From NCBI GenBank assembly GCA_963703955.1, contig CAVPGK010000003.1, forward strand, positions 1 through 43,512: a stretch of 43,512 nt of DNA, written 5' to 3'. This document shows positions 6,349 through 37,099 of the stretch, one piece after another. The DNA is from Nitrospirota bacterium. GTDB taxonomy: Bacteria > Nitrospirota > Nitrospiria > Nitrospirales > Nitrospiraceae. The notes beneath the pieces were generated by a model. It worked only from the letters and a program-made list of their open reading frames with translations, had not been told where the DNA came from and made no database searches. The position numbers and the translations under genes are program-made. Within the stretch, counting starts at the first letter, position 1. Each line of letters begins with the position of its first letter.

Positions 6349-6484
6349 GGGTGGGCCGACTGCCCTTCGTACTCGCGCACCGCGCACACTCGGAAGGTGC
6401 TCGGGCGGGAAGGGGCGCGTCTTGGCGCGCCTGGGGTGGGCGGGTGAAAACGGGCCCGCGCAGTAAAGGGCAATCGACCCACCC
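6349..6484. repeat. MITE/REP-like palindromic element (type A) with a nested hairpin-G-run unit (type B)
   Basis: Inverted arms 6349-6367 and 6466-6484 (17/19). The core matches the element at 31993-32082. Internal GGCGC-GTCTTGGC-GCGCC-TGGGGTGGGCGGGTGAAA. Confidence 0.75.
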
Positions 6485-9050: not shown

Positions 9051-9256
9051 ACGACCTCCATGGTAAGTGTTTGCAATGAGTCGACATATAGGTGATACCA
9101 CGTAACTTAAAATTTGCCAAGCGACTCCCCGTCCTCTTGCCGGAGTCAACGGATGACCGGAAAAACGGTGAGTAGGCCAAGTCTCCATTCTGTTGAAAGG
9201 GTGGGAGACGTATTGCGGGACGGTCTTCGATGGGAGTCGATCTTAAGGAGGGAACC

Positions 9257-10111
9257 ATGGCTCGCTATCCACGGGTGCTGATGGCCGGGGATGGCGCATT
9301 GACCATCGAGTTTGGATCGACGATCGATCCGGACATCAATCATCGTGTGATGGTCTGTTCGCGAGCCGTGGACAAGCTATCGTTATCCGGTCTGCTCGAC
9401 ATTGTCCCGACCTATCGATCGGTGACGGTCTATGTCGACCCGCTGAAAATCGATATCCTGTCGCTGGCGGAGCGCCTCCAGGCGCTCGCCGTATCGCTGG
9501 CCCCATCCACATCACGCCGTTCCCGGGCGGCAAAGAGCCCGTCCCTCGGGAAAAGAGCTGGTCTCGGCCAGCTCGGGGTGGGTGGGTGCAATAGCGATCG
9601 GGGCGGGCGAGTGAACTTGGGAAAGAGCCCGTCTCGGCGGGATCGGGGCGGGCGGGTGAAATTGAAGGAAATCCCGGTCCTCTACGGAGAAGAATATGGC
9701 CCTGATCTCCCGGCTGTCGCCGCGTTCGCCAAGCGCTCGATCGAGGATGTCATCGCGCTGCACATTTCGGTCGAATATCGCGTCTACATGCTGGGGTTCA
9801 GCCCCGGCTTTCCCTATATGGGGAAGATCCCGGATGAAATCGCGATGCCGCGCTTGGCCGCTCCGCGCGCGAAGGTGCCGGCGGGTTCGGTCGGGATCGC
9901 GGGCTCCCAGACCGGTATCTATCCGATCGAGACCCCCGGGGGATGGCTCCTGATCGGCCGAACGCCGCTTCGGCTCTACGACCCTAACCGGGCGAGGCCC
10001 TTTCTTCTTGAGCCAGAAAATCGTGTCCGGTTCGTCCGCATCGACCGCGCCGAGTACGACCGGCTTGACCGAGAGGAAAGTAACAAGTCAAAAGTTCACA
10101 GTAAAGAGTAA
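9257..10111 (+). CDS. pxpB: 5-oxoprolinase subunit B (KipI-like) carrying an in-frame ~46-aa repeat-derived insertion
   Basis: AAGGAGG RBS; DIVPTYRS, EIPVLYGEEYGPDL, YMLGFSPGFPY, VPAGSVGIAG, TPGGWLLIGRTP. Confidence 0.92.
   Translation: MARYPRVLMAGDGALTIEFGSTIDPDINHRVMVCSRAVDKLSLSGLLDIVPTYRSVTVYVDPLKIDILSLAERLQALAVSLAPSTSRRSRAAKSPSLGKRAGLGQLGVGGCNSDRGGRVNLGKSPSRRDRGGRVKLKEIPVLYGEEYGPDLPAVAAFAKRSIEDVIALHISVEYRVYMLGFSPGFPYMGKIPDEIAMPRLAAPRAKVPAGSVGIAGSQTGIYPIETPGGWLLIGRTPLRLYDPNRARPFLLEPENRVRFVRIDRAEYDRLDREESNKSKVHSKE
9524..9661 (+). repeat. Cluster of three type B hairpin-G-run repeats inside pxpB (one nested in another)
   Basis: Split copy 9524-9543 plus 9596-9615; complete copies at 9548-9591 and 9619-9661. 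Total 138 nt = 46 codons. Confidence 0.75.
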
Positions 10112-10159
10112 GGTGGAAAAGGCTTTTTTGCCTTTTTACCTTTCCCTTCGCATCAGCGT

Positions 10160-10927
10160 ATGCGCATCGATCTCAATTGCGACATGGGGGAATTCGCCGA
10201 TCCTGAGCGGCTTGCGCTGGAAGAGCGCATCATGCCTCTCGTGACGTCCGTAAGCATTGCCTGCGGGTTTCATGCAGGGGATCAGAATCTCATGCGGCGC
10301 ACGATTCGGCTCGCGCGGGCTCACGGAGTTGCGATCGGCGCGCATCCCAGTTTTCGCGATGTCGAGGGATTTGGTCGTCGGGAGATGACTTTCACGCCGG
10401 AAGAGGTGGAAAACCTCACGGCGTATCAGGTGGGAGCGCTTGCCGGGATTGCCGCGCTTGAAGGCGCATCGCTGAGCCATGTCAAACCGCACGGAGCGCT
10501 CTATAACATGGCGGCCAGGGAGCAGACCCTAGCATGGGCCATCGCGCGCGCGGTCGCCAAGGTTGATCGCCGGCTGATTCTCTTTGGGTTGGCCGGGTCG
10601 GCGCTCGTGGAAGCAGGGCGAGCCATCGGCCTTACCGTGGCAGAGGAAGCGTTTGTGGATCGCGCCTACAACGCAGATGGGTCATTGGTGCCCCGCCGGT
10701 CTGAAGGAGCAGTCATTCAGGCCGAGGCCGAGGTGATCCTCCGTATTCGGCGCTTGATTCTTGATGGGATCATCGTGAGCCATGACGACTCGTCGATTCG
10801 CCTCCATGCCGATACCATCTGTCTGCATGCCGACACGCCGGGCTCTCTTGGACTCGCGGAGGGAATCCGGCGAGAGTTGGTCAACATGAATGTCTACCTT
10901 CAGGCCGTCGCTCATGCCCCATCCTGA
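10160..10927 (+). CDS. pxpA: 5-oxoprolinase subunit A (LamB/YcsF family)
   Basis: IDLNCDMGE, IACGFHAGD, GAHPSF, HVKPHGALYN, EAFVDRAY, DTICLHADT. Confidence 0.95.
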   Translation: MRIDLNCDMGEFADPERLALEERIMPLVTSVSIACGFHAGDQNLMRRTIRLARAHGVAIGAHPSFRDVEGFGRREMTFTPEEVENLTAYQVGALAGIAALEGASLSHVKPHGALYNMAAREQTLAWAIARAVAKVDRRLILFGLAGSALVEAGRAIGLTVAEEAFVDRAYNADGSLVPRRSEGAVIQAEAEVILRIRRLILDGIIVSHDDSSIRLHADTICLHADTPGSLGLAEGIRRELVNMNVYLQAVAHAPS

Positions 10928-11876
10928 CCCTGCTCGGTTCTGGGTCATCCGCCCCGGATTTCTGACGACGGTCCAGGACCTTGGCCGATTCGGATTTCAG
11001 CGGTTTGGGATGCCGGTTGCCGGCGCGATGGACTCTGTCGCCCTGCGCCACGCCAACCGTCTGGTCGGCAATCCCGATGACGCGGCGGCGCTCGAGATGA
11101 CGGTCAAGGGAGCGGACCTCGCCTTTGAAACCGATGCGGTGATCGCGCTGACCGGAGCCGACCTGTCACCGATGATTGATCGTACGCCGGCGCCTCTCTG
11201 GACCACGGTAGAAATTAGACCTGGAAGCACGCTGAGCTTCGGTGAACGTCGAAACGGCGCGCGAGCCTACCTGGCGATAGCAGGAGGAATCGACGTGCCG
11301 GTGGTCTTAGGCAGCCGAGCGACCCACCTGGCCAGCCGGACAGGCGGATTCTTGGGCCGGGCTCTGGTCAAGAACGACAGGGTGACCTGTGGGCCTCGAC
11401 GTTCAGAAGCAGCAATGATGATCGGACGCACGATTCCAATCACCGCGCGCCCGCCATATAGTTCCGGGCCGACGCTGCGCGTGGTTCTCGGTCCACAAGC
11501 GGATTGCTTTTCGGCCGAAGCCGTCGAAACGCTGGTCCGCGAACGGTATACCGTCTCTCAGCACGCAGACCGCATGGGCTATCACCTTCACGGTCCATTG
11601 CTCGCCCATGCGGGACCGTCTGATATTGTGTCGGATGCGACCCCGCCAGGCTCGTTACAAGTCCCTGGCAATCAGCAGCCGATTCTGCTGATGGCGGATC
11701 GTCAGACGACCGGTGGGTACCCAAAGATCGGGGTAGTCATCACCGCCGATCTTCCGCTCGCGGCCCAACTGGCGCCGGGTGACACCGTCGGCTTCGCCCT
11801 GGTTGATGTGAGCGAGGCGCAAGCCATCGCTCGGGAGCAGCGGTCACAGCTCGAGGCGGCTCTGCCCGAATGGTAA
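10914..11876 (+). CDS. pxpC: 5-oxoprolinase subunit C (biotin-dependent carboxyltransferase family, KipA-like)
   Basis: TTVQDLGRFG, GAMD, GARAYLAIAGG, DRMGY, LMADRQTTGGYPKIG. Confidence 0.93.
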   Translation: MPHPDPARFWVIRPGFLTTVQDLGRFGFQRFGMPVAGAMDSVALRHANRLVGNPDDAAALEMTVKGADLAFETDAVIALTGADLSPMIDRTPAPLWTTVEIRPGSTLSFGERRNGARAYLAIAGGIDVPVVLGSRATHLASRTGGFLGRALVKNDRVTCGPRRSEAAMMIGRTIPITARPPYSSGPTLRVVLGPQADCFSAEAVETLVRERYTVSQHADRMGYHLHGPLLAHAGPSDIVSDATPPGSLQVPGNQQPILLMADRQTTGGYPKIGVVITADLPLAAQLAPGDTVGFALVDVSEAQAIAREQRSQLEAALPEW

Positions 11877-12776: not shown

Positions 12777-15383
12777 CTAACGTCTCCAGTAACTCATAGG
12801 TGGATTGGGCCTCTTGACGAAACATTGTCGAGTAAATCCGTACTTCTGGATGACGTTGAGAGACGCACGAGCCTCATGTTCCTTGTCCTCAAAGTCTAGG
12901 ACCCACATGTTTCCTTGCACGATCTTCCATCGGCCGCTTACCTGCTGAACTTGCATCCCGTTAGGGTTAACCGAAATACAGTCCTCTCCTGAGAATGCTC
13001 CAGTCGGCACTTGGTTGTTCACCAACCAATAGCTCATCGAAGGATCTGGCCGACCGATAAAGCAAATCTTGTTCAATCCGTAGTGCCGGATCGTATTGCG
13101 GGCCCTCACTGCGGCCGCTTGGTCATTAGCAAAGTCCAGGAGCCAATGGTTGCCATCCACCACCTTCCAGCGATTTTGGATCCGCTGCGCCGACACGTTA
13201 TTGGGGTTCAATCCAAGGCAATCCTGTAATGGCATTTGCGACACGGCATTGCGCAGGTTTGGAAGAGGGCCGATCTGTCCTGCGTTGGTGTTTTGCTGGG
13301 GTGTTCCTGTATTGCGCAGCAGGGTGCGTAGTTGAATCGCGGGCATCCCCTCGATGCCGGCGGCGCGACGGATGCCCATCAGAGACATGACAGCCCCGGT
13401 CACGATAGGCGACGCGCTGGATGTCCCACTGAATTGGTTGGTGTACCACTGGCGGCGATCTGCTCCATTGATGCGATTTTGCGGATCAGGCACTCCGTAC
13501 CCTGTGCTCCAGACTCCTTGGCCCCAGCCATGCACGTCGACACGGCTTCCACGGTTCGTCCAACAGGTTGGCCGGAGATTGCCGTCGGACGCGCCGACTA
13601 TGATCGCACCCGAATCTCGGGTGTTTCGGTTGAAGCGGTTTCCGTACCGAGCGTCATCTAAATTCATGCTCCCGTTGCCGGCGGCCTCGACCACATGAAT
13701 TCCCCGGGCGGTCGCTGCCTGGATCGCATCGAACTCGGCCTGCCAGTATTCCATGGCAATGTATTCGAACTGCCCGCAGTTACAAGTACATTGCTGACCG
13801 CTCGCCGGCCCCTTGGCATGTTGCTCGATGAGGATCACATCGCCCCGACTCAATCGGCTTGCCGCGACGTTCACAGCATCGGCCACACTGTAGCCACCCG
13901 TCGGACGAATGACGGAGACGACGCCGTATGCACCGCCGCTCGCGATGCCTGTGACTCCATAGCTACCGTTATTTGAAACCATTTCCCCCAAGACTGCAGT
14001 CCCATGATCGCTGCTCGTGCCAATCGATCCATTCGTAAAGAACGGCGGCGGGAGATCTTCATGTTGGAGATACCAACTTCCTTCGATATCAATGACGCGA
14101 ATGCCGTTGCCTCGACCTCCCAGCAAGGTCCAGGCAAATTGCGCATCAATACCCTGGGGAGCAGGCGCAACGTACCCCTGGTTAGCCTGAAGAGTCGGAG
14201 TCGGCGGGGCGATATCTGCCTGGGCATCCACAGGAACCGGGGCCAAGTAAGCTGTTTCTACTGATGCTAACCCGTTGAACTCGTCTACCAGCTCCTCACC
14301 TTTGGTGTCCGGTTCAAGCTGGATTGTGAAATAATTACTGAGGTCCGCCTGCTCCTGAGCGGTCAGGCGTTCGGCAGCGATGCGGTCGGCTTGAAGCAAC
14401 TTCTCCTGTCTCGAAAACAACGGTGCTATCTGTTTGACCGCCTGGCGCTTCAAGATCTCATTGACTTTTGCCAGGTCGGTTTGCACTTTACTTTGAGTCA
14501 CGTTGCCCCGTTGCATCCTCGCTTTCGATTCGGCATCCTGAGCGGGGGGCATTGAGCGGAACGAGGGTTTGGTATCCCTTGAGGCCGATTGACCGAGCCG
14601 AACGACGGCTCCCTCCTTGAATTTCACAATGATTCGATCTCGGAAGAGGCCCTGGTAGAACGTGGCCCGAGCAGGGCGTTCCTCCACGACACGTGCCTTG
14701 ATCGTTGCAGTGGCCTGAGGAGCTTCCTGATCGACAGGGTCTTTCGAGGGAATTCGAAGCCCGGATTGAACTGCACTCTTGGCCTTCCCACGACTTTTTG
14801 CGATCACCGAAGCGCTGACCGGGGCCAGCGCGCGCTTGGCCACGCCAGAGTAAGTTCCTGCGGCATCCGCTGATTTGCCAGAGGGGAGGAGTAACACGAA
14901 GTGGTGTTCGTCCGGGTTTGGCCCTGCCACCGATTCGGCTTCTGGAGCAGTGAGTTTTTCCTTATGGGTTCCGCTCTTTGCCGTCAGAGTCCAGGTTTGA
15001 TTTCCGACCTCGCTCTGTACTCTGAGAGGTGGTCCCGCAGTAACTTCGACGAGGTAGTTGCCCGCATCAAGTATTGCCGGATTTCCGTCTGAAGTTTGGA
15101 ATTGAGTCGATCGTTGCAAGACGACTGGCACCGAGGCAACCGCAGCGCCACCTCGATCCTCGCCTCTCTCGGGCAACGCTTTGATCGCGGCGTCGACCTG
15201 CTCGGCGGTCGATGATGCGGAAGTTGGGTCAGCAGCCGGAGGTTCGCCTTCTTGTGCGGCAACTGGCGGTGTGAACCAACCAAGTGAGATGATTTTCTTG
15301 TCGGAGAGAGAATCGAGAGACCGATTCAGATAGGTCGCCAGAAGCAGAAGAGCGAAGACGGCTAGAATCGTTGGTTTTCTCAT
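12777..15383 (-). CDS. Secreted S8 (subtilisin-family) serine peptidase with prodomain and two C-terminal repeat domains
   Basis: Catalytic triad VIDIEG / DHGTAVLG / FSGTSSASP; oxyanion AAGNG; GGAGG before MRKPT; N-terminal hydrophobic segment. Confidence 0.93.
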   Translation of the reverse strand: MRKPTILAVFALLLLATYLNRSLDSLSDKKIISLGWFTPPVAAQEGEPPAADPTSASSTAEQVDAAIKALPERGEDRGGAAVASVPVVLQRSTQFQTSDGNPAILDAGNYLVEVTAGPPLRVQSEVGNQTWTLTAKSGTHKEKLTAPEAESVAGPNPDEHHFVLLLPSGKSADAAGTYSGVAKRALAPVSASVIAKSRGKAKSAVQSGLRIPSKDPVDQEAPQATATIKARVVEERPARATFYQGLFRDRIIVKFKEGAVVRLGQSASRDTKPSFRSMPPAQDAESKARMQRGNVTQSKVQTDLAKVNEILKRQAVKQIAPLFSRQEKLLQADRIAAERLTAQEQADLSNYFTIQLEPDTKGEELVDEFNGLASVETAYLAPVPVDAQADIAPPTPTLQANQGYVAPAPQGIDAQFAWTLLGGRGNGIRVIDIEGSWYLQHEDLPPPFFTNGSIGTSSDHGTAVLGEMVSNNGSYGVTGIASGGAYGVVSVIRPTGGYSVADAVNVAASRLSRGDVILIEQHAKGPASGQQCTCNCGQFEYIAMEYWQAEFDAIQAATARGIHVVEAAGNGSMNLDDARYGNRFNRNTRDSGAIIVGASDGNLRPTCWTNRGSRVDVHGWGQGVWSTGYGVPDPQNRINGADRRQWYTNQFSGTSSASPIVTGAVMSLMGIRRAAGIEGMPAIQLRTLLRNTGTPQQNTNAGQIGPLPNLRNAVSQMPLQDCLGLNPNNVSAQRIQNRWKVVDGNHWLLDFANDQAAAVRARNTIRHYGLNKICFIGRPDPSMSYWLVNNQVPTGAFSGEDCISVNPNGMQVQQVSGRWKIVQGNMWVLDFEDKEHEARASLNVIQKYGFTRQCFVKRPNPPMSYWRR

Positions 15384-15667
15384 GACTGCCTCCATGCAAA
15401 TGAAGTAGAGAAGTAGCGAAGGCCATTCGAATAGGTGGCTCCCTCAATGTTGGTCCTCTGGTCCCGCCAGCGAGTCAGTCACCATGCGGCATGGGAACTT
15501 GCTCAGATGCGGCGGCCAGATCAGGTCGTGTAGATCGTGGCACGCAAGGACGGTGCCCTCAGAGAAATCAGATGAAGAGTCACGGGCGGTCGACAACTTG
15601 TAAATGGAACCAAAACAAAAGAGGGGCGTCTACAAGCTTTCCTGTTTATCGTAACAGATACGCTCTA

Positions 15668-28297: not shown

Positions 28298-30133
28298 ATG
28301 AGCGACCACCGAGAAACCGGACAAACGCGCAAGGGAGAGGCGGGTCAGCGCTCGGATCAGGATCGGCAGGACCGAAACGACCCACTTGTCCTGATCGACG
28401 AATGTCTGGCCGCGATCCCGGACGATGACCCACGGCAGAGAATTCTCTTCAGACTACGACATCTCCTGCTGCAGGACGGTGTTGTTCGACAGCAACGCGA
28501 AGCGGAGTTCAAAAAAATCAGCGAAGTCGTGGCCAAACTCACGGCTCCTGCGAACCGGATCGGGATGCTGCTCGAGTTGCCGGCTGAAGGCTTGGCCCGT
28601 ATCGTGGTCGGTGGGGCCGAATACTATACGAATGTGGATCCCCGAGTTCCTGCGGCCGACTTGAAGATTGGGACGCAGATCCTGGTGAATGAAGCGTACG
28701 CGCTGATCAAGACCCTGGGCTGTGATCGGAGTGGGCCTGTTTTGAAAGTGGCGGAAACGCTGCCCGATGGACGGCTTCGGTTCGAGCAGGAACCGGGGCG
28801 CCAAGCCCTGATCCTCCAACGGTCGAGCGACTTGATGGGGATCGAGCTGAAGGCCGGCGATGAGGTGAGAATCGATCCCAGCCACCGGATTGCGATCGAG
28901 CGGTTGGAAGATCGAAAGGCCGACACACACCTATTGGATGAAGTGCCGACCGTAACCTGGGAGCAGATCGGCGGGCAGCAGACGGCGATTGCGGCGATTC
29001 GCAAGGCCATCGAGTATCCGCTGCTGCATGCCGAAACCTTCGCCCAGTACCGGTTCACCCAGCCCAAGGGCTTTCTTCTGTACGGTCCTCCGGGGTGCGG
29101 AAAGACCTTAATCGGCCAGGCGGCCGCAGTTAGTCTGTCGAAGCTGGTGAGCGAAGCGCAGCCCGATTCGACGGAGCATTCTCCATTCCACCCGCCCACC
29201 CCACACGCGCCGAGACGCGTGTCTGACCCAATACACGCGTCCGACCCGATCACGGGCGGGGTATTCCTGCACGTGAAGGGGCCCGAGATCCTCAACATGT
29301 GGCTGGGGGAATCCGAACGCATGGTGCGGGATCTTTTTGCCCAGGCCCGCGCCCGTCGGAAGGCCGGCTCTCTCCCATTCATCTTTATCGATGAGGCGGA
29401 ATCCATCCTTGGCACGCGGCGCGCCATGCGAGCCTTTAATATCTCCAACACATTGGTCCCCATGTTCTGTTCGGAAATGGACGGTATCGAATCGTTGCGC
29501 GAAGTGGTCATCATCCTGGCTTCCAATCGGCCAGACCTCATAGACCCTGCAGTGCTCAGACCCGGACGGATCGATCGGAAGATCAAGGTGGGTCGCCCCG
29601 GGAAGGGAGAAACCGCTGAGATTCTCAGGGTCTATCTCACTCCCGAGCTTCCCCTTGATCCTTCTCTCGTCGCCGCTCATAGGGGTGATAAGCAAGCCGC
29701 CTGCGGATCGCTCATTTCGCAGACGGTGGATGCCGTATTCCGGCGCACTGATGACACTCGACTCTTATCCATCCGTCTCCGAAGCGGACAACACAAGATT
29801 CTCTATCGTGGTGACCTGGTCAGTGGGGCGATTCTCGCCTCGATCGTTCAACGTGCGAAGGAACGCGCGATCGAGCGGACGATCGCGCTTCGAGCGCCGC
29901 TCGGCGAGGACCTCGCCGCTGAAGCCAGGGGCGGCGGGCATGGCGGTCTAACTCTGGACGATCTCCTCATCTCCACGAACGCGGAGTTTCGCGAAGGGGA
30001 AATGTTACCGCCGGATGATGCTGCCGAGGAGTGGCTCAAGCTGCTGGATCATCACCCCGAACAGGTCGTCGGGATTTCTTTGTTCCGAAAAGGGCGAATG
30101 GGAGAGGAGCGGCTGGTAGGACAGATAATCTAA
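28298..30133 (+). CDS. arc: Proteasome-associated AAA ATPase (ARC/Mpa family)
   Basis: GGAGG RBS; coiled coil then OB domains; Walker A GPPGCGKT, KGPEILNMWLGESER, Walker B IFIDE, SRH SNRPDLIDPAVLRPGRID; position in a proteasome operon. Confidence 0.93.
   Translation: MSDHRETGQTRKGEAGQRSDQDRQDRNDPLVLIDECLAAIPDDDPRQRILFRLRHLLLQDGVVRQQREAEFKKISEVVAKLTAPANRIGMLLELPAEGLARIVVGGAEYYTNVDPRVPAADLKIGTQILVNEAYALIKTLGCDRSGPVLKVAETLPDGRLRFEQEPGRQALILQRSSDLMGIELKAGDEVRIDPSHRIAIERLEDRKADTHLLDEVPTVTWEQIGGQQTAIAAIRKAIEYPLLHAETFAQYRFTQPKGFLLYGPPGCGKTLIGQAAAVSLSKLVSEAQPDSTEHSPFHPPTPHAPRRVSDPIHASDPITGGVFLHVKGPEILNMWLGESERMVRDLFAQARARRKAGSLPFIFIDEAESILGTRRAMRAFNISNTLVPMFCSEMDGIESLREVVIILASNRPDLIDPAVLRPGRIDRKIKVGRPGKGETAEILRVYLTPELPLDPSLVAAHRGDKQAACGSLISQTVDAVFRRTDDTRLLSIRLRSGQHKILYRGDLVSGAILASIVQRAKERAIERTIALRAPLGEDLAAEARGGGHGGLTLDDLLISTNAEFREGEMLPPDDAAEEWLKLLDHHPEQVVGISLFRKGRMGEERLVGQII
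29186..29229 (-). repeat. Type B hairpin-G-run repeat inserted in frame (antisense) in arc
   Basis: Reverse complement GGGTCAG-ACACGC-GTCTCGGC-GCGTGT-GGGGTGGGCGGGTGGAA; encodes FHPPTPHAPRRVSDP. Confidence 0.75.
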
Positions 30134-35878: not shown

Positions 35879-37099
35879 TCAAGGCTTCTCAAGATCTTCC
35901 CAGTCATGCCAGGCGCGATCCCACCACCCCCTGTGCCTAAGTTCGCCGTCGTCATCTGTGACAAAACAGTGCAACTGGTTCGGCTTGTCGGGGCCCCATG
36001 CTAAACAGTCCGGACCTTTCGAACCCTCACCTGATCCCAGGTTTTCCCAACCGTGCCAGGCACCGTCCCACCAGCCGATATGGAAGAAGGCGTGCGAAGG
36101 GGATCCCGTGGTGTATGTGGCGAAACAGTGTAGCTGGTTAGGCTTGTCCATCCCCCATGCCATGCAGTCCAGACCCAACATTTCATTTTGGCTTGAAGGC
36201 TTGTAAGGACTTCCTAGGTCTTCCCAATTGTGCCAAGTTCCATTCCACCACCCGACGTGAACAAGGTGGCTGTCATAGGATATCCCCTTCGCCGGCCCGG
36301 CGAAGCAGTGCAACTGGTCGAGTTTCTCCAGTCCCCATGCCACACAGGACGGATACCCTCCTACAGGGTGCGCTGAAGGCCTTCCCAGGTCTTGCCAGTT
36401 GTGCCAGGTACCCTCCCACCAGCCTTTGTGCCAGAGGTGGGATTCATGAACACCAGCCACGAAACAGTGCAACTCGTCGGGTTTGCTCAGTCCCCTCAGT
36501 CCCCACGCGACACAGGACGGTTGACTCTCTATCTTTTGCCCAGTCGGGGCTCCGAGGTCTTGCCAGGTCTGCCAGCCGCCGTCCCTCCACCCTTTCTGCC
36601 AGAGATGACCGTCATCGCCAGTGACGAAGCAATGCAGCTGGTTGGGTTTGTCGAGCCCCCATGCCAGACAGCGCGGATCCCAGTCAACGATACCCCCAGC
36701 CGGTTTACCAAGATCTTGCCAGTCGTGCCAGGCTCCATCCCACCATCCCTTGTGTTGGAGGGTTGAGTCGGACGATCCTCTGACGAAACAATGCAACTGG
36801 TCCGGCTTGTTGGGTCCCCAGGCGACGCAGGACGGCTGACCCTCAACCTTTTGCCTAGGCGAGGCTCCAAGGTCTTGCCAGGTGTGCCAGGTGCCGTCCC
36901 TCCACGCTTTCTCCCAGAGATGACCGTCATCACCGATGACGAAACAGTGCAACTGATTGGGCTTGTCGAGCCCCCACGCCACGCAGTCTGGCCGACTCTT
37001 TAGCACAACAGAAACCGCTTGGGACGACCACAAGAACAAGACGGAGAGCGCGACGAAGGTTGCCACCATTGTCTTGAAGCTGGTCTTTCTGCTCATCAT
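35879..37099 (-). CDS. Secreted seven-repeat Trp-rich beta-propeller, PLL/fucose-lectin-like
   Basis: Signal peptide and seven ~50-aa repeats PxCxAWG.DKPNQLHCFV.G.DGHLW.KGW.DG.WH.WQDLG. Confidence 0.85.
   Translation of the reverse strand: MMSRKTSFKTMVATFVALSVLFLWSSQAVSVVLKSRPDCVAWGLDKPNQLHCFVIGDDGHLWEKAWRDGTWHTWQDLGASPRQKVEGQPSCVAWGPNKPDQLHCFVRGSSDSTLQHKGWWDGAWHDWQDLGKPAGGIVDWDPRCLAWGLDKPNQLHCFVTGDDGHLWQKGWRDGGWQTWQDLGAPTGQKIESQPSCVAWGLRGLSKPDELHCFVAGVHESHLWHKGWWEGTWHNWQDLGRPSAHPVGGYPSCVAWGLEKLDQLHCFAGPAKGISYDSHLVHVGWWNGTWHNWEDLGSPYKPSSQNEMLGLDCMAWGMDKPNQLHCFATYTTGSPSHAFFHIGWWDGAWHGWENLGSGEGSKGPDCLAWGPDKPNQLHCFVTDDDGELRHRGWWDRAWHDWEDLEKP

Follow-up and report, generated by a model that had tools for sequence, protein, structure and literature searches.

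Palindromic repeats that lie in frame within genes are known from several groups of bacteria. Rickettsia palindromic elements (RPEs), as summarised in passages of two articles (PMC10969869, PMC3733652), lie within unrelated housekeeping genes, where they keep the reading frame, as well as in intergenic DNA, and a table in PMC3184786 gives their length as 105–146 nt. The available part of Di Nocera 2013 (PMC3733652) describes intragenic REPs and BIMEs tagged with GTAG or CGTC, reports in-frame repeats in Opitutus, Thauera and Xanthomonas, and states that REP clusters encode 43–82 aa; Nitrospira is not mentioned in that part of the article. In-frame palindromic repeats of Bordetella, named BRE, appear in the relevant section of PMC3184786. 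PMC2996986 and PMC2700814 describe Geobacter families whose insertions in genes occupy every frame, including an intragenic family of G. metallireducens based on the heptamer GGACCGG. Excerpts of PMC6006769 and PMC12306157 complete the literature used for comparison.

In-frame palindromic repeats have thus already been reported well beyond Rickettsia, and the phenomenon as such is not new. What is new here, as far as alignments and trees can tell, is that relatives of one protein, PxpB, carry 0, 1 or 3 units of a repeat, and that a near-identical unit occupies the same site of a peptidase, which we take to be of the M28 type, in unrelated lineages. The family to which these units belong works like RPEs and intragenic REPs, and it fits none of the named families tested.

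The insert in PxpB and its allelic forms

The gene pxpB (9257..10111, plus strand) lies in the window, that is, the whole analysed stretch of 43,512 nucleotides. It encodes 5-oxoprolinase subunit B, a protein of 284 aa with the insert, identified by the equivalog TIGR00370 (195 bits against a cut-off of 145.55), and orthologue alignment also indicates 9257 as its start. It is the first gene of pxpB-pxpA-pxpC, followed on the plus strand by pxpA (10160..10927) and pxpC (10890..11876). Coverage by the RNA run X8 near the locus is limited to 10686–10953, and a metagenome scan with PxpB returned distant relatives only. Two other features of the window were seen in passing: an 872-aa open reading frame at 12777–15395 resembling a subtilisin-like peptidase with extra domains, for which the gene model start differs, and seven imperfect repeats of about 156–180 nt with conserved Cys and Trp codons at 35880–37000 (minus strand), probably a repeat protein that the gene caller overlooked.

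The net in-frame insert (9527..9661, plus strand) measures 135 nt, or 3 × 45 nt, and adds 45 aa to the linker between the N- and C-terminal domains of PxpB, whose boundaries were taken from structures 2phc and 2zp2. It was delimited in this way because three close empty relatives (P0003, P0123 and P0124) show an exact gap, with SRRSR joined straight to LKEIPV. The repeat insert and its peptide lie between the two domains just as the preliminary description had it; its length of 138 nt has to be corrected, since the arginine codon at 9524–9526 belongs to the host protein, and PxpB without the insert has 239 aa rather than 238. All 18 orthologues compared, from the same family, lack the insert. 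The gap is 45 aa, where about 46 aa had been expected, and none of the 18 has an equally long unrelated linker. In the alignment-based AlphaFold model that was used, both domains mostly exceed a pLDDT of 90, and residues 87–123 and 126–129 fall below 50, a low value that is partly due to sparse aligned rows in the insert; a single-sequence AlphaFold prediction gave a pLDDT of 32.

The order of parts within the insert is the left half of unit 1, unit 2, the right half of unit 1, and unit 3, in agreement with the earlier parse in which the second of three copies splits the first at its loop. The 5' half of unit 1 (9527..9546, plus strand) contains the arm GAGCCC plus GTC (9535–9543), with a residual CCT after it. 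Its 3' half (9592..9618, plus strand) contains GCGATC (9594–9599) and the tail GGGGCGGGCGAGTG (9600–9613), and is 92% identical to 9641–9664, 45 nt downstream. Unit 2 (9547..9591, plus strand; nhmmer 35.6 bits) sits inside the unit 1 loop, where it lengthens that unit's canonical spacing by a net 45 nt, and consists of GAGCTG (9555–9560), the loop GTCTCGGC (9561–9568), CAGCTC (9569–9574) and the tail GGGGTGGGTGGGTG (9575–9588). Unit 3 (9619..9661, plus strand) is intact, and it is the sole unit remaining in the one-unit allele.

A 76-nt double-hairpin segment upstream of pxpB (9126–9201) is probably another small insertion, because it is missing from a related contig of run X4; similar hairpin motifs occur three to six times in the genome. 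The C-terminal tail of PxpB, SNKSKVHSKE, and the gap before pxpA (10075–10150) look derived from a short A-rich repeat, and distant orthologues end before this tail.

Among the 95 parsable PxpB sequences (26 of 121 could not be parsed and were dropped), the linker measures 31 aa in 84, 30 aa in seven, 46 aa in P0002, 54 aa in P0004 and 76 aa in two. P0001 and P0122, from other sources, have this same three-unit linker, and P0002 has the 15-aa segment of unit 3 alone. A contig of X4, a DNA-type run, joins 9528 to 9619, omitting 9529–9618 (90 nt) and keeping unit 3. Contigs of run X5, from another study, cover 9499–9582 and 9554–9710 with three and five differences. Both GAGCCC-type copies of the present sequence share an A at 9597 and 9642, and X5 has a C at both positions.

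In a PxpB tree of 15 rows, built with the insert excluded, empty and one-unit alleles are nested among three-unit alleles with supports of 83–88, and holding the filled alleles together was rejected (AU p=1e-4). Because relatives carry 0, 1 or 3 units and the shorter alleles are nested, the unit appears to be gained and lost in 45-nt steps. The simplest reading of this tree would be a three-unit pxpB ancestor followed by loss in whole units. Recombination among pxpB alleles, evident from mosaic sites, could yield the same tree picture.

A dispersed hairpin family and its copies inside genes

The motif recurs throughout the genome, as the preliminary description had supposed. An iterated nhmmer profile finds 103 matches at 77 loci in 3.3 Mb, with none in the reversed-genome control; one locus appears twice, on contigs C8 and C20, which leaves 76 non-duplicate loci, and C8 was omitted from the orientation and stem counts for the same reason. 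In the window, the tail with at most one mismatch occurs five times against 0.09 expected, and the 8-base loop alone barely exceeds chance (nine against 4.5 expected). C8 and C20, like C9 and C19, are multi-kb duplicates at 97% identity, which suggests a strain mixture or redundant assembly.

The strict motif was found only in two Nitrospirales families: it is present in 30 of 61 relatives (20/36 in f1, 9/9 in f3, 0/10 in f2 and 0/5 in f4; controls 0) and in none of 249 genomes from other families of the phylum. An exact 33-mer matches 89 GTDB stretches; among the 80 matches listed, 79 are from Nitrospirota and none is from Rickettsia. Two matches in viral contigs are uninformative, and the insert has no match in Rfam. 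Copy number among relatives ranges from 0 to about 30 with no shared locus, and genomes with a single copy have no locus in common.

The unit, about 45 nt long, comprises GGGAAG on the 5' side, a 6-bp stem whose sequence is free, a GTC-TY-GGC cap that is fixed and includes a T·G mismatch, and a 3' GGGGYGGGYGGGTG tail; column counts give the 5' foot as GGGAA(G/A). What had been called a loop is able to pair with itself (G-C, T·G, C-G). A canonical intergenic copy lies in the gap between an FKBP gene and gcvT (6406..6450, plus strand; GGGCGC/GCGCCT; nhmmer 44.1 bits). The four stems named earlier are all real, at 9555, 9625, 6408 (intergenic) and 29186 (antisense, in the ARC ATPase gene), with an A·A mismatch in GAGCCC/GGGATC. 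Their covariation holds, and the tail is less fixed than was claimed, copy 1 reading GGGGCGGGCGAGTG. In 57 units selected on loop and tail, with no stem requirement, 313 of 342 stem positions pair, against a shuffle mean of 252 and maximum of 266; slid controls pair at 31–43%. Stem changes are compensatory and of many types, and the T·G cap is kept in 54 of the 57 units.

Nine of the 76 loci fall within conserved genes, another five overlap 3' ends, and most are intergenic. The earlier analogy with RPEs is supported by the empty orthologous sites, the dispersal of the family and the way other coding copies keep frame in loops or linkers; the notion of a family that adds peptide segments to enzymes fits only the minority of copies that are coding. 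Because they are a minority despite a genome that is about 77% coding, by the calls of a crude in-house gene model, the coding copies are read as survivors of selection and not as the work of a protein-aimed element (the depletion test used eight internal loci, the final internal count being nine). The host genes encode PxpB, ARC, GlmU, HflX, an SDR protein, a metallo-beta-lactamase-fold hydrolase, an alpha/beta hydrolase, Lhr and CopA.

A clear in-frame gain is seen in seven of these nine genes against three to five orthologues each (18 for PxpB). It amounts to about 60 aa in GlmU, 42 in the metallo-beta-lactamase-fold hydrolase, 30 in the alpha/beta hydrolase, 28 in HflX and 13–14 in SDR; the linkers of Lhr and CopA are too variable for the gain to be sized. 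In the proteasome ATPase gene ARC (28298–30133), identified by Pfam AAA plus proteasomal OB domains, an antisense unit (29186..29228, minus strand) adds 16–21 aa in frame after the Walker A region, as the gap against three orthologues indicates. In GlmU relatives the same loop holds inserts of differing composition, each in frame locally, and some genes hold stand-alone units without host-repeat context.

No unit splits one gene into out-of-frame halves in the gene calls of this genome, G000. Against the picture of tolerated coding copies, the HflX and alpha/beta hydrolase genes have frameshifts elsewhere in the gene in this assembly, where frameshift-like junctions number eight in 174 matched loci; HflX of G006 is intact, and its matching site holds a diverged insert of the family. 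In hflX of G000 (L033, G000:C15:33580-33670), two single-base insertions upstream of the repeat represent an assembly error or a pseudogene. The unit lies within a predicted ORF in 26 of 91 GTDB and viral loci, of which only the M28 case was checked against orthologues; presumably these ORFs include CusA, RimO and DnaX, as recognised from sequence. The gene cobT (L036, G000:C18:53317-53358) takes its final codons and its stop codon from a unit. An apparent avoidance of TGA in the stop-bearing frame (0/7) was set aside as circular, since copies are called coding only when their frame is open. Judging from the alignments, coding copies survive only in frame, in linkers or loops.

The modal net length of a unit is 45 nt, so many insertions keep the frame by default, and the canonical unit has a stop in only one of six frames. 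The unit is thus predisposed to keep frame, though it does not always do so. Thirteen automatically parsed self-nested composites show gains of 45 nt in six, 46 nt in four, and 42, 47 and 50 nt in one each, with one of the 46-nt cases not a true nest and the 50-nt case a mis-parse. The unit lands in the loops of other repeats as well as in its own, and one host repeat is found both empty and unit-filled in the same genome. There is no terminal inverted repeat and no consistent target duplication at the pxpB, M28 and host-repeat sites; the junctions of filled sites differ from the empty allele by 3–6 nt. G000 also contains four or more other repeat modules that nest within each other, with about 116 segments in one cluster, and one repeat module with inverted AGGATGCT-type ends carries the 45-nt unit as cargo.

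Recurrence at one site is seen in the M28-type peptidase, where seven of 23 tree rows hold a near-identical unit at one codon, a likeness inflated by the fact that five of the seven were first found with an exact-match pattern; the units of the two filled alleles that a protein search turned up are likewise close to canonical. The net gain is 45 nt (15 aa) in six of the seven, the seventh having an assembly gap. Filled alleles are polyphyletic, several lineages standing beside empty sisters (AU p=1.6e-48), in a tree that leaves out L243 and six more distant loci. The flanks track lineage, and the 3' junction is common to the filled sites. Because a near-identical unit stands at the same position in unrelated lineages, repeated arrival at one site is indicated, and the sequences point to a hotspot or to short-patch homing, the two being inseparable here.

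Likeness to described repeats and the search for a mobilising gene

Like RPEs, the units keep frame within protein genes that are unrelated to one another and whose orthologues have an empty site, and a dedicated transposase has been shown for neither, as far as the RPE passages cited above extend. Unlike RPEs as described there, the unit is about 45 nt long, asymmetric with a G-rich tail, and self-nesting; only about one in eight loci is gene-internal, and the host is a free-living member of Nitrospirales, not Rickettsia. This separation is one of description rather than of direct DNA comparison, and PxpB has no match to an RPE domain in NCBIfam or Pfam.

With the intragenic REPs of the portion cited, the unit shares a stem-loop of 20–45 nt with an unpaired tail and a mostly intergenic, sometimes in-frame, location. 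It differs in lacking a terminal GTAG or CGTC tag, its foot being GGGAA(G/A) and not an unpaired GTAG, in being arranged head to tail or nested where inverted dimers dominate REPs, and in having no RAYT beside it. CGTC is confined to the stem, and there to one subtype, other subtypes having GGTC or TGTC, unlike the CGTC REP/NTS-SRM, which in the accounts used have a terminal unpaired CGTC, an 8–9-bp stem and a CCA tail; nor does the unit flank a GIY-YIG gene at any of 30 loci compared. Unlike a MITE, it has ends that are not complementary and no consistent target-site duplication. BoxC/PIT, in the relevant portion of PMC4666352, is likewise an asymmetric hairpin plus a G-rich 3' tail containing GGGTG; the unit is set apart by its mixed covarying stem, as against a purine/pyrimidine class II triplex, and by its absence from 30 DUF559 loci. 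NTS/SsnA, as outlined in part of PMC11893778, serves as a model of a hairpin repeat with a small nuclease as its partner, and here no unit lies near the GIY-YIG genes of those 30 loci. The Geobacter multicopy sequences were set apart by the description in those articles, a comparison that stops short of the supplementary alignments, which could bear on novelty.

The preliminary description knew of no account of this family, and none was found in the open literature combining Nitrospira or Nitrospirales with REP, G-quadruplex, and MITE or palindromes, a scope that leaves most subscription papers outside. The family looks undescribed.

No mobilising gene was found among Y1_Tnp, IS110, DUF559 and GIY-YIG partners or among neighbouring ORFs. 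G000, which is 82% complete, has no Y1_Tnp match, and 30 Y1 loci of relatives, taken from a larger set of matches, contain no unit, barring two weak partial matches (E 0.7–0.84). There was one weak match (E 0.013) in 30 IS110 loci, and the unit is present in none of 30 DUF559 loci and none of 30 GIY-YIG loci. Many DUF559 loci of these relatives carry BoxC; in L323–L352, DUF559 genes are bracketed by inverted BoxC/triplex motifs, as is the GIY-YIG locus L359. Pfam searches of 93 of the 131 small ORFs beside units revealed no transposase or recombinase, the only nuclease being one BglII-like protein. At L198, a cupin gene is bracketed by a convergent unit pair. At L397 (G004:C53:26000-30500), two near-identical unit-bearing direct repeats stand 1 kb apart around a two-gene pair, presumably a bacterial toxin-antitoxin module by its appearance.

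Explanations for the spread of the unit

The insert is probably a stack of three non-autonomous, Nitrospirales-specific mobile units of about 45 nt, a hairpin-recognised parasite tolerated as a neutral protein loop. By analogy with REP/TnpA-REP or NTS/SsnA, an enzyme acting in trans would recognise the unit in its single-stranded hairpin form, and the unit would spread by targeted insertion or short-patch homing. Host proteins would translate it as a neutral Gly/Arg-rich loop, with no splicing out.

A bolder version of this reading is put forward only tentatively. The unit might serve as substrate for a site-specific system of single-strand DNA mobility that awaits discovery. It would then insert or home repeatedly at identical sites in different genera, with hairpin loops, its own among them, as targets, and could exit cleanly in 45-nt (15-codon) steps. 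Such a system would recognise the unit through its sequence-free stem, fixed mismatched cap and G-quadruplex-prone tail, and the lengths of protein loops would toggle within populations.

It is also possible, if rather doubtful, that no dedicated enzyme is involved and that the units are cargo of MITE-like host repeats, multiplied by replication slippage, template switching at hairpin or G-rich DNA, and gene conversion, with stem covariation arising from quasi-palindrome correction. Many copies indeed sit within a longer, inverted-end repeat, there are tandem arrays of 45-nt units, the A shared at 9597 and 9642 against C at both in X5 suggests conversion, and the enzyme searches came back empty. 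However, some units inside genes stand alone without host-repeat context, and same-site arrival in separate M28 lineages needs targeting or homing. Template switching, moreover, should erase the T·G mismatch, yet nearly all units keep it.

An unlikely alternative sees the unit as a domesticated cis-acting RNA or DNA structure, a hairpin plus a G-quadruplex formed from the 5' GGG and three tail G-tracts, that controls mRNA stability or transcription, the coding copies being regulatory. G-tract positions in the tail are conserved in 88–100% of units, with variable spacers; all four tracts are present in 35 of 67 hairpins, and the G4Hunter score has a median of 1.36 and reaches 1.76 for the pxpB insert. 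A hairpin-loop G-quadruplex is possible by such predictions, but ViennaRNA with G-quadruplexes allowed retained the plain hairpin for two of three single units. Of 44 co-directional gaps, 36 have the G-rich strand as sense strand (p=2.5e-5), a bias that is weaker in GTDB loci (28 vs 15, or 28/43) and that may reflect the purging of template-strand copies. Against a regulatory role stand the scatter of copy numbers among relatives with no shared locus, the unrelated host genes and the alleles that freely lose the insert.

Very little speaks for an intron-like or translationally bypassed element removed at the RNA level, and we regard this as highly improbable: the insert is structured, and large in GlmU, but it has no Rfam match, the 90-nt joint comes from a DNA-type run, and every coding copy checked, the remodelled GlmU and HflX inserts among them, is open and preserves the frame whichever strand it lies on, which removal would not require. 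An assembly artefact of an error-prone genome bin, to which the indel-like errors of the assembly might lend colour, has a negligible chance of being right and was rejected, since the three-unit linker also appears in P0001, P0122 and the X5 contigs from another study.

How RPE-like repeats enter genes and keep frame has been an open question since 2000. With a mobile hairpin unit as the preferred reading, an allelic series at one codon boundary, a site filled repeatedly in unrelated lineages and a length that is a multiple of three make insertion, homing and excision testable against one another. The family may lead to a new single-strand DNA enzyme, and it accounts for unusual Gly/Arg-rich insertions in Nitrospirales proteins and for spurious peptide similarity between them.
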